Assembly (NCBI RefSeq): GCF_058153355.1
Contig: NZ_CM177019.1
DNA: 64,000 nucleotides
Reading direction: 5' to 3' (one strand)
Position numbers and translations under genes: made by a program. Every line of letters begins with the position of its first letter. Position 1 is the stretch's first letter. A model generated the notes under the pieces. That model was not told the origin of the DNA and did not search any database. It saw only the letters and a program-made list of their open reading frames with translations. Below are positions 58,115 to 63,184 of the stretch, piece by piece.

Positions 58115-58261
58115 AAACGCTGGCGGGTTCGCAAGCGGTACGCAATCTGAGCATTCCTGAGGGGTTAATAAACAATCAGATGAAAAGAAAGGGTTAATAC
58201 TTTGGGTAGGATGTTATTTTACCGGATGGCGACTCGCCATCCGGTATGTCACGCTTAGACG

Positions 58262-60796
58262 TTAATTACTACCAAACATATCCTTGATCCAACCTGCTAC
58301 GCCGTCACTGTCTTTCTGCTCTTGCTGAGCAGGTTGCTGTTGCGGTTGTTGCTGCGGCTGAGAAGACTGATCAAACGGATTGCCTGACGGTTGCTGCTGA
58401 ATCTCACTCTGCTGGCACAGCGATTGCGGATCGCTGGTCCAGACCGGCAAGACACGCATGCCACCGCTGCAAACAAAGTTGCCGTCGTAGTCCACGCCCA
58501 TATCTGCAATATCTTCTGGTGGAACAAGATTCAGCGGTGTTGGTGTCTGGTTAGCCAGATAACGCTGATAAATCGACATTGCCCCACTGGCACCATACAG
58601 TTTGGTCGGCTGGTTGTTATCACGGCCTACCCAGGTGATGGTCACCGTGCTGCCGTCAATGCCCGCAAACCAGGTATCCACGTTGTTGTTGGTAGTCCCG
58701 GTTTTGCCCGCCAGATGCAGGTTCGGGTATTTCGCCCCAAGCTGACGACCCGTACCGCGTTGTACCACCTGCTGCATGGTCCATAGTGTCAGATACGCCG
58801 CCTGCGCCGGAACCGCGCGTTCCGCCTGCGGGAAGCTCTGATACAACACCTTGCCATCTTCCGCGATTACCGAACGCAGCGCAGAAAGCGGTGCTCGGTT
58901 ACCACCGCTGGCGATGGTCTGGAACGCCTGCGCCACTTCAATTGGCGTTAAGTTCAACGCCCCCAGCAGCATTGCCGGAACCGGATGCAGCTGATCTTTC
59001 GGTACGCCCAGTTTAATCCAGGTATCCGTAACCGCAGGCAGCCCCAACGCCATCCCCAGATTTACCGTCGGCACGTTCATCGAACGAGTCAACGCATCCA
59101 CCAGCATCACTCTGCCACTTTCGCTATAACGACGATCATCGTTCTGCGGTGACCAGACCTGGCCATTCGGCTGACGCAGCGCGATTGGCGCATCGGCAAT
59201 CCACGTGTTCAGGCGATAGATTTTCGGCTGGCTTAAGGCCGTCAGATAAGTCGCTGGTTTTGCAAGGGAACCAATCGAACGACGCGCCTGCATCGCACGG
59301 TTGTAACCTGCAAACTGCGGCTCAGAACCACCAACCATCGCACGAACTTCACCACTAAAGCGGTCGACGACCACAATTGCCGTTTCCAGATCGCTTAACT
59401 TACGCTGTTTCTTCAGTGCCGGAATGCCTTCCACGGCGGCTTTTTCCGCCGCGTCCTGAGCCACCGAGTCAAAGGTAGTGAAGATCTTCACGCCGGAGAG
59501 ATCTTTTACCTTATCGCCTAATTTCGCCTGCAGCTCCTGACGCACCAGTTGCATAAAGGCTGGCTGTGGAGAGATTACCCCACCACGCGGCTGAACCCCC
59601 AGCGGACGTGCACTCAACATGTCATAGAGCTCTTGATCAATAATCTGCTGTTGTTGCAGCAGACGCAGCACCAGGTTACGTCGCTCCAGCGCCAGTTTCG
59701 GGTTACGCCACGGGTTGTAGATCGACGCCCCTTTCACCATACCAACCAACAGCGCCTGCTGGTCGAGACTCAGCTCTTCTACCGGGCGACCAAAGTAGTA
59801 CAGGCTCGCCAGCGGGAAACCGCGGATTTCGTTGTCGCCGCTCTGACCGAGATACACCTCGTTCATATACAGCTCAAGAATGCGGTCTTTGCTGTAACGC
59901 GCATCCATGATCAGCGCCATGTAGGCTTCGTTCGCTTTACGCCAGTAAGAGCGCTCGCTGGAGAGGAACAGGTTCTTCACCAACTGCTGGGTCAGCGTAC
60001 TGGCCCCCTGTACCGTACGACCTGCCATCAGGTTCGCCAGCACGGCACGGCCAATGGAATAGAGACTGATCCCATCATGCTCGTAGAAATGACGGTCTTC
60101 AGTCGCCAACAACGTATCCACCAGCAAGTCAGGGAACCCACTGCGCGGCACAAACAGACGCTGCTCACCGTTTGGTGAAGAGATCATGGTGATCAGGCGC
60201 GGATCAAGACGGAAGAAACCGAACTGACGGTTGTTCTCCATATTGACGATGGTCGCCAGATGATCACCATCAAAAGTCAGACGCGCACGTACCTGCCCTT
60301 CTTTACTGTCCGGGAAATCAAACGGACGGCGGATCATTTCAATGCTGTTGGCCTGCACGGTAAATTCGCCAGGGCGCGTCATTTTCGACACCTGACGATA
60401 CTGGGTCGCCTCCAGCAGCTTCACCATCTCGTTTTTGCTGATGGTCATGTCTGGCTCAAGGTTGACCATTCGGCCATAAACAGCCGCAGGCAATTGCCAG
60501 ACTTTGCCATCAATACGGCTACGAATTTTTTGATCGAGATAAACACCGTAAATGGCGATCAGCACGGCAAAAACGATAGCCAGTTTTAGCAGCAGCCATA
60601 GCCAGCCGCGTTTGCCACGAGGCTTACGCCCTTTGCCTTTGCCCTTACCTTTGCGCGGCATCGGTTCTTCATCCTCATAGTCATCATAATCGTCGTAATC
60701 ATCGTCATCTTCGTAACGACGACGGCTTACCTTTTGTTTGACCGGACGCGTCGGTTTCCCTTTGCGTCCAATTGGCTCGCGGTCATTCCCGGCCAT
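58262..60796 (-). CDS. mrcB: penicillin-binding protein 1B (bifunctional glycosyltransferase/transpeptidase)
   Basis: ORF track 58262-60811; recognised PBP1b starts [18 protein letters not shown] (844 aa). Confidence 0.95.
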
Positions 60797-60889
60797 GCTT
60801 TTTCTCCGCAATATTCAGGCGCAAAAGCCCGATTTTCTGTTCTTCTGTAACAAGACAGAAGAAGATATCTCTCAAATTTACTTTGGTCT

Positions 60890-63184
60890 TCATGAATACT
60901 TTTTCGTCCGTCGCGTCGGTGCGGTATTTGCCGGATCATCCGGCCAGACGTGTTTGGGATAACGCCCTTTCATTTCTTTTTGCACCTCGCGATACGCTCC
61001 TTTCCAGAAGGCACTCAAATCTCGTGTGATTTGCAGCGGCCTTTGGGCAGGAGAAAGCAACTCCAGCACCAGCGGCACACGCCCCTGGGCGATCGTCGGA
61101 TTGGTGGCCTCGCCAAACATCTCCTGCATTCTCACCGCCAGCGCGGGCGGGTTATCTTCATGGTAACGAATGGCGATCCGGCTTCCCGTCGGCACAGTGT
61201 AATGCGCAGGCAATTCACTATCCAGACGTTGCTGCATCCCCCAATCAAGTAATCCGCGTAGCGCCTGATAAATATCGAGTGATTTCAGGCCGCGTAGCGA
61301 ATGTACGCCTGCCATATGCGGCAGTAGCCACGTTTCCAGCGTCGCCAACAAACTTTCATCATCAACCGCTGGCCAGTCATATTCTGGCAACCACCTGGCG
61401 GCGCATAACAAACGCAAGCGTAGCTGTTCCGCTTCCGGCGTCCAGTTAAGCACGCTTAAGCCTTTATCACGAACGCCGTTAAGCATCGCCTGATGCAGCT
61501 CGTCTTCTGAAGGCTTCGCCAGCGGCTGCACTTTTACCGTCAGTTGACCAATTTGCAACCGACGCCAGGCTTTCAGCGTACCTTGCGCATCATCCCACTC
61601 CACGGTGTCCGATTGCTGCACCAGCTGCGGACAGCGTTGCACTAATTCATCGATATCGACCGGTAGCGCCAGTAAAATCCGCGCATCCGGCGAGGCGCTA
61701 CCCTGCAATAATAACGGTGCGATAAGCGAACTGTCTGCCTCACCGCCGCGTACGTTTAAGCGCTTTAACAGTTGCTGGCTACGTTGCTGCCAGGCAGGTT
61801 GATTGCGCGAAAACGCCACGCCCAGATCGATATTGCCCATCCGTGGTGGCTCTTCGAGAATAGCGGCAATTTTTGCAGCGGTAGCAGCTTCGTCGTCGCT
61901 CTTTACGCTCACCAGCATTGCCGCTAAACGCGGATCGTTACCCAGCGTCGCCATTTTCTGCCCTTTCGTGCTTAGCCGTTCACCGTCCATCGCCCCCAGC
62001 ATCCGCAACAGGCGTTTCGCGGCCTGTAAATTCACGGCTGGCGGTTGATCCAGCCAGCTCATCTGCGCCGGATCGCTGCATCCCCATTGCAGTAATTCCA
62101 TCAGCAAACCGGAAAGATCGCTTTGTAAGATCTCCGGTTCACTTTGTGCGGCAGCGCGTTCTGCTTGTTCTTTGGCGATTAAATGCAGGCAGATACCCGG
62201 CTCCAGACGCCCGGCACGCCCGGCACGCTGCGTCATCGACGCCTGACTGATTCGCTGAGTAATCAACCGCGTAAGTCCTGTACGCGGATCAAAACGCGCC
62301 ACCCTTTCCTGGGCGCAATCCACCACCAGACGAATACCTTCGATGGTTAAACTGGTTTCAGCAATATTGGTTGCCAGCACCACTTTGCGCATCCCTTCTG
62401 GTGCCGGAAGGATCGCTTTTCGCTGATCGTTCAGCGACAACGCGCCATACAGCGGGCAGAGCAACACATCACTACCGATGCGCGAAGCCAGTTGTTCCTG
62501 AACGCGCTGAATTTCTCCGACACCAGGTAAAAATAACAGTAATGAGCCGCTTTCCTGATGCAGCAATTCGGCGGTGGCAACCGCCACGGCTTCATCAAAA
62601 CGCTGATGAGCGAGCAGCGGTAAATATCGGCGTTCAACCGGAAATGAGCGCCCTTCTGAGATGACGACGGGCGCTTCTGGCAGCATCTGCTGCAAGCGGT
62701 CATTGTCCAGCGTAGCCGACATAATCAGTAGTTTAAGGTCATCACGCAGACCTTGTTGCACATCGAGTAACAGCGCCAACGCCAGATCCGCCTGCAAGCT
62801 GCGCTCATGAAACTCATCGAGGATCACCAATCCAACGCCGCTCAGTTCAGGGTCACGCTGGATCATGCGCGTCAACACGCCTTCGGTAACTACTTCCAGG
62901 CGAGTATTTGGCCCGACACAGTTTTGCGCGCGCATCCGGTAGCCTACCGTATCACCTGTTTTTTCGTTAAGCAGTTCCGCCAGTCGTTGCGCAACGTTAC
63001 GCGCCGCCAGGCGACGCGGCTCCAGCAGGATAATTTTTCCGTTAATGCCGGGATGCGCCAGCAGTTGCAGCGGCAGCCAGGTTGATTTCCCGGCCCCGGT
63101 CGGCGCACTTAATAACACCTGCGGTGCACCATCGAGGGCAGCAAGTAACTCAGGTAAGACGACGGCAACGGGCAACGACGACAC
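60890..63184 (-). CDS. hrpB: ATP-dependent RNA helicase HrpB (DEAH-box); appears about 45 codons shorter than the K-12 reference I recall
   Basis: ORF track 60890-63229 (779 aa from ATG); recalled HrpB start (M)SSLPVAVVLPELLAAL corresponds to the GTG at 63182-63184, giving 764 aa; motifs GAGKST, DEFH, SAT present. Confidence 0.85.
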   Translation of the reverse strand: MSSLPVAVVLPELLAALDGAPQVLLSAPTGAGKSTWLPLQLLAHPGINGKIILLEPRRLAARNVAQRLAELLNEKTGDTVGYRMRAQNCVGPNTRLEVVTEGVLTRMIQRDPELSGVGLVILDEFHERSLQADLALALLLDVQQGLRDDLKLLIMSATLDNDRLQQMLPEAPVVISEGRSFPVERRYLPLLAHQRFDEAVAVATAELLHQESGSLLLFLPGVGEIQRVQEQLASRIGSDVLLCPLYGALSLNDQRKAILPAPEGMRKVVLATNIAETSLTIEGIRLVVDCAQERVARFDPRTGLTRLITQRISQASMTQRAGRAGRLEPGICLHLIAKEQAERAAAQSEPEILQSDLSGLLMELLQWGCSDPAQMSWLDQPPAVNLQAAKRLLRMLGAMDGERLSTKGQKMATLGNDPRLAAMLVSVKSDDEAATAAKIAAILEEPPRMGNIDLGVAFSRNQPAWQQRSQQLLKRLNVRGGEADSSLIAPLLLQGSASPDARILLALPVDIDELVQRCPQLVQQSDTVEWDDAQGTLKAWRRLQIGQLTVKVQPLAKPSEDELHQAMLNGVRDKGLSVLNWTPEAEQLRLRLLCAARWLPEYDWPAVDDESLLATLETWLLPHMAGVHSLRGLKSLDIYQALRGLLDWGMQQRLDSELPAHYTVPTGSRIAIRYHEDNPPALAVRMQEMFGEATNPTIAQGRVPLVLELLSPAQRPLQITRDLSAFWKGAYREVQKEMKGRYPKHVWPDDPANTAPTRRTKKYS

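Follow-up and report, generated by a model that had tools for sequence, protein, structure and literature searches.

The perfect inverted repeat in the short spacer between hrpB and mrcB is, judged from a comparison of related loci, the Escherichia form of a conserved stem-loop in the mrcB leader. The structure is very probably under selection, and the best explanation overall, which we favour with some reserve, is that the leader stem-loop has a post-transcriptional role in cis. E. coli has two main peptidoglycan synthases, of which PBP1B, the product of mrcB and a target of beta-lactams, is one; the control known for it is post-translational (LpoB, CpoB). Literature searches found no paper on the mrcB leader, on sRNA control of mrcB or on control of mrcB mRNA, and the leader hairpin appears to be undescribed, while the polymorphism of the BoxC repeats next to it is already known. 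With its support from covariation and its conservation across the Enterobacteriaceae, the leader structure is a concrete target for mutations, by which a control of PBP1B levels after transcription could be probed.

Stem-loops of the mrcB leader and their conservation

In the 64,000-nucleotide stretch of E. coli DNA analysed here (the window), mrcB starts on the minus strand with the ATG at 60796 and hrpB, on the same strand, ends with the TGA at 60890-60892, as read directly from the sequence; the spacer accordingly covers 60797-60889, the 93 bp given in the preliminary description. Direct reading and a repeat finder also recover the perfect 9-bp inverted repeat named there, which consists of TTCTTCTGT (60840-60848), a 6-nt loop (60849-60854) and ACAGAAGAA (60855-60863). 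On the mrcB mRNA the repeat corresponds to stem-loop 1 (60840-60863, minus strand), with the 5′ arm UUCUUCUGU (60863-60855), the loop CUUGUU (60854-60849) and the 3′ arm ACAGAAGAA (60848-60840). The duplicated TTCTGT next to it is present as well, as a direct repeat on the plus strand (60835-60848) with copies at 60835-60840 and 60843-60848; the matching columns differ in other genera, and the duplication looks Escherichia-specific and incidental.

By itself the repeat is statistically unremarkable: perfect 9-bp inverted repeats with loops of 3-10 nt number 18, at 8 distinct places, in the 64-kb window (shuffles, 1.9±1.7), and the fold of the whole spacer is uninformative (z = -0.21). It is the comparative evidence that argues against chance. 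The other perfect 9-bp inverted repeats lie at 933, 9359, 22961, 43305, 48659 and 52054, and a nested perfect inverted repeat of 9-12 bp at 58220-58246, 16 nt downstream of the mrcB stop codon (58262), is probably the mrcB terminator.

The comparison was made with mrcB loci from 80 species of Enterobacteriaceae whose MrcB is 80-99% identical to that of the window, giving 81 sequences with the window included. All 81 keep a block of about 80 nt directly before the mrcB ATG, which starts sharply at TTGAGAGAT; TTGAGA is invariant in 81 of 81 and stands 79 nt before the ATG in most of them (range 76-82). Upstream of the block the sequence is unrelated between species and may consist of REP-like units (Salmonella, Citrobacter), BoxC-like hairpins (Enterobacter, some Escherichia) or other DNA; in C. 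youngae and Lelliottia the hrpB stop codon itself is immediately upstream. In K. pneumoniae MGH78578, hrpB (KPN_00148) and mrcB (KPN_00164) are about 15 genes apart, and the leader is kept. Since it persists next to unrelated upstream DNA, and also where hrpB is not adjacent, the leader belongs to mrcB and not to the end of hrpB. Invariant or nearly so are TTGAGAG, UCUUCUU, the residues A45/A47/A48/U49 and most of stem-loop 2 including its loop. Within E. coli, 5424 of the 5426 complete genomes have the block once, with an identity of 95% or more in every case, and a covariance model of the block (R1) has one match in the 64-kb window, with 96 bits.

Beyond this range of relatives, MrcB representatives of 65% identity (with polA-mrcB synteny) and of 49% identity have no such leader. 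A search of Rfam 15 (E ≤ 10) found no family on the mrcB-sense strand; chance matches were MicF (22 bits, E 0.82, gathering score 79) and, elsewhere, GHRLOS. The weak MicF match, at 60676-60762 on the plus strand, is antisense to the 5′ coding region of mrcB and is almost certainly due to chance.

At the position of the inverted repeat a hairpin is present in every species, and its inner stem differs between genera and stays complementary. The 5′ and 3′ arms read CUUCUGU and ACAGAAG in Escherichia, CUUUCACC and GGUGGAAG in Enterobacter, CUUCCUCU and AGGGGAAG in Klebsiella, CUUCCUCC and GGGGGAAG in Leclercia, and CUUCUGC and GCAGAAG in Kosakonia; further genera have yet other arms, and the loop varies from 4 to 6 nt across species. 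RNAalifold, unguided, predicted the helix of stem-loop 1 and a second small helix. Over the 15-pair structure 92.7% of the cells hold standard pairs, versus 48-58% (maximum 57.6%) when the 3′ partners are slid by 1-3 columns; changes on both sides of a pair were counted in 90 cells, versus 33±4 in column shuffles, none of which (0 of 500) reached 90. Helix 1 has compensatory changes at 6 of its 10 pairs, with 91% of cells paired and six pair types at pair 25:34; its basal four pairs are invariant and neither support nor contradict pairing. Stem-loop 2, a 5-bp stem predicted by RNAalifold at 60816-60831 (minus strand; CGGGC-UUUUGC-GCCUG in the window), has 95% of cells paired and an alternation of A-U and G-U at one pair, with no double-sided change. 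When the species were folded individually, the mean energy was -12.7 kcal/mol and the mean z -3.1, with z < -1.5 in 91% of the sequences.

The direction of the pairing can be told as well. Pairing reaches 91.4% on the sense strand versus 83.8% on the antisense strand, and G·U accounts for 79 cells, with Watson-Crick pairs in 81.6%; the excess on the sense strand together with the G·U cells points to an RNA structure on the mRNA strand and not to a DNA dyad. The preliminary description had placed a structural element on the transcribed minus strand, with which the covariation on the mrcB-sense strand agrees.

Escherichia has the weakest version of the hairpin, with 9 bp, -9.9 kcal/mol and 5 nt unpaired on the 5′ side, while the stem of most genera is 14 bp long and contains a 2-nt bulge. 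In the window the minimum free energy of stem-loop 1, -9.9 kcal/mol, corresponds to z = -2.5, and in the fold of the 72-nt untranslated region described below the hairpin has a pairing probability of about 1 and the Shine-Dalgarno sequence is largely unpaired. The latter (GGAG, 60807-60804) and the mrcB start codon (ATG, 60796-60794) lie in invariant columns within 60794-60807 on the minus strand and are predicted to be mostly unpaired.

Some variation within E. coli may be mentioned here. The window loop CUUGUU reads CUUGUA in nearly all E. coli, K-12 included, and CUUGCA in strain MLI109; an identity of 99% or more to the window leader is reached in only about 19 of 5424 genomes. Over 60600-61100 the window is about 96% identical to most E. 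coli, and at least 99% identical in 23 genomes, and so comes from an uncommon lineage. On the other side of the start codon, the first eight or so mrcB codons (60750-60796, ATGGCGGGGAATGACCGCGA…) are nearly invariant in nucleotides across genera, synonymous sites included, which suggests a constraint from translation initiation beyond that on the protein sequence; by eye, UUGCGG just 5′ of the Shine-Dalgarno sequence can pair with CCGCGA in mrcB codons 5-7.

Transcription start and the promoter-proximal element

In Salmonella SL1344, a single dRNA-seq dataset maps the primary start of mrcB to 220848, which is 72 nt upstream of the ATG, with 4 and 9 reads (Ramachandran 2012). The mrcB promoter string in the supplementary table of that study ends …AAATTGAGAGA / …GTAAATTGAGAGA, which places +1 at the A of TTGAGAGA, that is, at window position 60868, the counterpart of K-12 position 164658; the promoter was classed as "motif 1", with a -10-like element ending at -6. 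By homology, the window would then have a putative 72-nt mrcB 5′ untranslated region at 60797-60868 (minus strand), and the stem would begin at +2 in most genera and at +6 in Escherichia. In E. coli K-12, start sites with low counts have been reported at 164235 (inside hrpB) and at 164551 and 164574 (both inside the BoxC insert treated below), and in Klebsiella a start site was reported at -296. All the start sites mapped in Salmonella, E. coli and Klebsiella are upstream of the hairpin, so it is transcribed from each of them, and its location in the mrcB 5′ untranslated region is likely. Whether it is "5′-terminal" in E. coli is uncertain, because the E. coli and Klebsiella datasets call more distant starts with equally low counts. 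The Cappable-seq, SMRT-Cappable-seq and Romero 2014 supplements contained no relevant entries for the mrcB leader.

Directly upstream of the putative +1 lies a conserved element (60869-60880, minus strand), made up of the -10-like hexamer TAAATT (60880-60875) and TGAGAG (60874-60869), to which invariant columns, enrichment of the hexamer and gSELEX peaks all point. A -10-like hexamer (A2, T6) stands at the right distance in 62 of the 81 sequences, versus 17% in shuffles; no conserved -35 was found among the 81, and a scan for consensus promoters around the spacer made no call. Holoenzymes with RpoD, RpoH, RpoF and RpoE gave gSELEX peaks in the K-12 spacer in vitro, with the peak at 164658. The preliminary description had put the repeat upstream of the mrcB promoter; it in fact follows both the Salmonella start site and the one promoter-like element that is conserved.

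Other promoter assignments were considered and rejected. A σ70 promoter TTGAGA-17-TGTAAC has been computed for mrcB (Shimada 2014, PMC3946193); it takes the invariant TTGAGA as a -35 and places the -10 inside the hairpin loop, and it is the outcome of a best-match computation and not a mapped start. As a mapped promoter it was discarded: the supposed -10 in the loop reads TGTTAC in the window and is not -10-like outside Escherichia. By eye, the Salmonella start site agrees neither with an extended -10 (TGaGAGATT) nor with a -10 at GAGAAT, and a σ54 reading of GGCC…TTGC has the wrong spacing. Independently of these, the hrpB stop codon adjoins or overlaps the -10-like element (…GTATTCATAAATTGAGAGA) at two Citrobacter loci and in Lelliottia; there the spacer is the leader alone and the -35 region lies inside the hrpB coding sequence.

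Spacer-length alleles upstream of the leader

Complete genomes of E. coli carry three spacer alleles, of 93, 131 and 195 bp. The 93-bp allele is that of the window, strain 2020CK-00188, MLI109 and JJ1886-type strains, the 131-bp allele was seen in strain 12689, and the 195-bp allele is that of K-12, B and O157; the preliminary description was thus right in giving K-12 a longer spacer. That description had also said that a spacer of the same length as in reference strains, with an unconserved stem, would speak against it; the length differs and the stem is conserved.

The repeats known as BoxC, PIT or TMECO were reportedly described by Bachellier in 1999. The extra 102 bp of K-12, which read CCCTCTCCCTGTGGGAGAGGGCCGGGGTGAGGGC … ACCCTCACCCTAACCCTCTCCCTCAAGGGAGAGGG, match the motif of these repeats, CCCTCTCCC-N-GGGAGAGGG-(CC/TT)-GGGGTGAGGG, a triplex or G4 motif that is repeated in the genome; a reading of the window spacer shows the motif to be absent there. 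The insert corresponds to entries 1 (164547-164580, plus strand) and 2 (164631-164597, minus strand) of the TMECO table (Holder 2015, PMC4666352), and its elements are HPG2 and HPG1 in the list of Kaplan 2016, where they are described as a "G-quadruplex-hairpin-duplex switch" (PMC5100583); presence and absence of the TMECO locus among E. coli strains have already been published. As read from the alignment of E. coli alleles, then, an inverted BoxC/TMECO pair is inserted directly upstream of the -10 element in K-12 and in some 60% of E. coli, and the remainder of the window spacer (60881-60889, minus strand) is the corresponding empty site.

At least 80% of the K-12 spacer is present in 3266 of 5426 complete E. 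coli genomes, and the 195-bp spacer, used as a query, is matched at a median of 2 places in a genome and at 6 at most; the long allele thus occurs in about 60% of E. coli genomes and a short or intermediate one in about 40%. The short allele was counted directly in at least 359 genomes, a lower bound since it comes from a 71-bp junction query with which megablast lost 1534 genomes. A short form of recognisably homologous sequence is common to E. albertii and an Escherichia sp., which argues that the 93-bp allele of the window is the ancestral empty site; the 131-bp allele, from its sequence, looks like a deletion between the two BoxC hairpins.

The preliminary description had suggested that a REP-type unit might be missing from the window. 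A repetitive palindromic element is indeed absent, and to that extent the suggestion stands, but the element is the inverted BoxC/PIT/TMECO pair and not a REP: the REP core GCCGGATG/CATCCGGC, an imperfect palindrome, is found neither in the window spacer nor in the 102-bp insert of K-12. Sequences like REP (…CGCCATCCGGC…) do occur at this position in Salmonella and Citrobacter. REP and BIME elements resemble the leader repeat in being extragenic palindromic repeats, often located after stop codons, but they are multi-copy in a genome whereas the mrcB leader is single-copy. Nor is the BoxC element related to the inverted repeat of the window, which is A/T-rich and single-copy.

Because the BoxC/TMECO polymorphism directly adjoins the mrcB -10 element, the whole sequence upstream of -12 differs between the two common E. 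coli alleles, and so does the presence of a 3′-end-forming structure between hrpB and mrcB; the difference may change mrcB expression between lineages. In K-12 the published low-count start sites 164551 and 164574 (Cho 2014) and a Term-seq 3′ end at 164636 (Adams 2021) lie in, or at the edge of, the BoxC/TMECO pair, so that in K-12-type strains the insert may make a short transcript of its own, one that the window allele cannot make.

The neighbouring hrpB of the window (60890-63184, minus strand) encodes 764 aa versus 809. It lacks 45 codons (135 bp) in frame, which correspond to K-12 residues 487-531, and the deletion falls precisely between two copies of the peptide LIAPLL; the gene starts with GTG where K-12 has ATG. 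The deletion looks strain-specific, since the closest genome annotates a full-length hrpB of 2430 nt.

Possible roles of the mrcB leader

For a role in cis, the following scheme can be proposed. A weak promoter relying on its -10 (TAAATT in the window) would start transcription at the A of TTGAGAGA, and the resulting 72-nt 5′ untranslated region would consist of stem-loop 1, a purine-rich single-stranded linker GA(G/A)AAUC, stem-loop 2, the Shine-Dalgarno sequence and the ATG. The 5′-proximal hairpin could shield the 5′ end of the mRNA from 5′-end-dependent decay (RppH, RNase E), as in ompA, and could keep the conserved pyrimidine tract UUUCUUCUU paired, which would leave the ribosome-binding site open; both effects together would set the basal level of PBP1B. 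That the mechanism is in fact a cis-acting stabilisation of the mRNA or a tuning of PBP1B translation is a tentative proposal. Against the stabiliser, the 5 unpaired 5′ nucleotides in Escherichia would give poorer protection than a flush 5′ hairpin; against the shielding of the tract, the duplex that it could form instead with the Shine-Dalgarno sequence is a weak one of -6.1 kcal/mol. TTGAGAG and GA(G/A)AAUC are also more strictly invariant than a simple stabiliser would require, which hints at a bound factor.

Two other pairings were tried and rejected. An anti-Shine-Dalgarno switch, in which the 5′ arm pairs with GGAGAAAAAG at 9 of 10 positions by eye, would form a duplex of -6.1 versus -9.9 kcal/mol for the hairpin. 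Pairing of the loop of stem-loop 2 (CUUUGCG) with mrcB codons 10-12 (CGCAAAG) shows no convincing covariation, most genera having CGT whatever the loop base.

The hint of a bound factor leads to the alternative that an sRNA or an RNA-binding protein (Hfq, ProQ, a ribosomal protein) docks on hairpin, invariant linker and stem-loop 2, and that this factor switches PBP1B translation or decay according to the state of the envelope; both parts of this idea we regard as rather unlikely, but they deserve consideration. Conservation of sequence above structural need, namely in TTGAGAG, UCUUCUU, A45/A47/A48/U49 and stem-loop 2 with its loop, would be explained by it, and the linker appears purine- and A-rich like the ARN sites of Hfq, with GAGA|AUC apparently close to an RNase E-type site. 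The whole K-12 spacer, annotated in one assembly as the 68-aa open reading frame D8B36_18480, lowered csgA expression 18-fold when over-expressed from pUC19 (PMC10869245), and titration of a factor by the spacer RNA could explain this repression of a curli gene. Yet the over-expression phenotype may be due to a peptide, to plasmid effects or to the BoxC part of the spacer; the literature searches found no partner of the mrcB leader among sRNAs or proteins, and no Rfam family matches it. The fuller version, in which the leader is a dedicated cis-regulatory RNA that is bound by a trans factor and couples PBP1B synthesis to the envelope state, is less probable still; if true, it would give the class A penicillin-binding proteins of Enterobacteriaceae their first described element of post-transcriptional control.

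A connection of the hairpin with the 3′ end of hrpB, whether as a weak terminator, as an exonuclease block or as an RNase processing site for read-through transcripts, is improbable. The short allele does have no other structure between the hrpB stop codon and mrcB, so any read-through must cross the hairpin, which still forms in the fold of a read-through transcript. For the weak terminator proposed in the preliminary description, however, the stem has only 3 G-C pairs out of 9 and is followed by CAGAAAAUC, with no U-tract, and a scan of 60600-61100 returned 0 terminator-like sites. In the K-12 spacer a single Term-seq 3′ end has been reported, at 164636, just after the second BoxC hairpin, 15 nt before TTGAGA (164651) and hence upstream of the leader hairpin (Adams 2021); no Term-seq 3′ end falls at the leader hairpin in K-12, which has the long allele. 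The hairpin, moreover, keeps a fixed distance to the mrcB ATG and not to the hrpB stop codon, and persists where hrpB is not a neighbour. We infer that in strains with the short allele nothing obvious separates hrpB from mrcB transcription, because the BoxC element at the 3′ end 164636 is missing.

A palindromic DNA operator is more doubtful again. A dimeric repressor would sit on the 9-6-9 palindrome, over TTGAGA-17-TGT(A/T)AC or from +6 to +29; in its favour, E. coli has the dyad without a mismatch, in overlap with the hexamers of the best σ70 match of Shimada 2014 and within a spacer that binds holoenzyme, and the outer arm, TTCTTC/GAAGAA, is conserved as sequence. Against it, the inner half-site is fully different between genera yet complementary, and the loop varies from 4 to 6 nt; in DNA symmetry the 79 G·U cells would be A·C mismatches, and the Watson-Crick share is only the 81.6% given above. 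Outside Escherichia the loop does not keep the supposed -10, and the palindrome is not known to match the consensus sites of transcription factors such as LexA, CRP and TyrR. The protein-binding palindrome of the preliminary description is thus disfavoured by the covariation of the inner stem, the variable loop and the G·U cells.

Least credible of all is a small protein or leader peptide (in the window a 36-aa frame from the ATG at 60893 to the TGA at 60783, in K-12 the 68-aa D8B36_18480), since the frame, although 64 of 81 sequences keep it open over 25 codons or more, its window ATG overlaps the hrpB TGA and an over-expression phenotype is reported (PMC10869245), has stops in 17 of 81 (among them S. 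enterica arizonae, K. pneumoniae and Pseudescherichia) and frameshifts in Kosakonia and Lelliottia, conserves neither start codon nor Shine-Dalgarno sequence, varies in the residues over the hairpin although pairing is kept, consists in the N-terminal half of the K-12 product of translated BoxC repeat, and contains the Salmonella start site. The 36-codon frame of the window (60783-60893, minus strand) ends 14 nt inside mrcB. The D8B36_18480 frame is not conserved as coding; the csgA effect, if real, is at least as likely to be an effect of the RNA as of a peptide.

Returning to the favoured reading, a conserved leader stem-loop acting in cis, the closest known counterpart is the 5′ untranslated region of ompA, whose hairpin hp1 is said, after the work of Emory, Bouvet and Belasco in 1992, to be a 5′-terminal stabilising stem-loop. 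In both leaders there are two hairpins with an A/U-rich single-stranded linker, the second hairpin lying close to the ribosome-binding site, and in most genera the first hairpin of the mrcB leader begins 1-5 nt from the putative 5′ end. They differ in length, 72 nt in mrcB versus 133 nt in ompA, and have no sequence similarity; the mrcB leader of E. coli leaves 5 nt unpaired, and its 5′-terminal position there is putative, taken as it is from the Salmonella start site.
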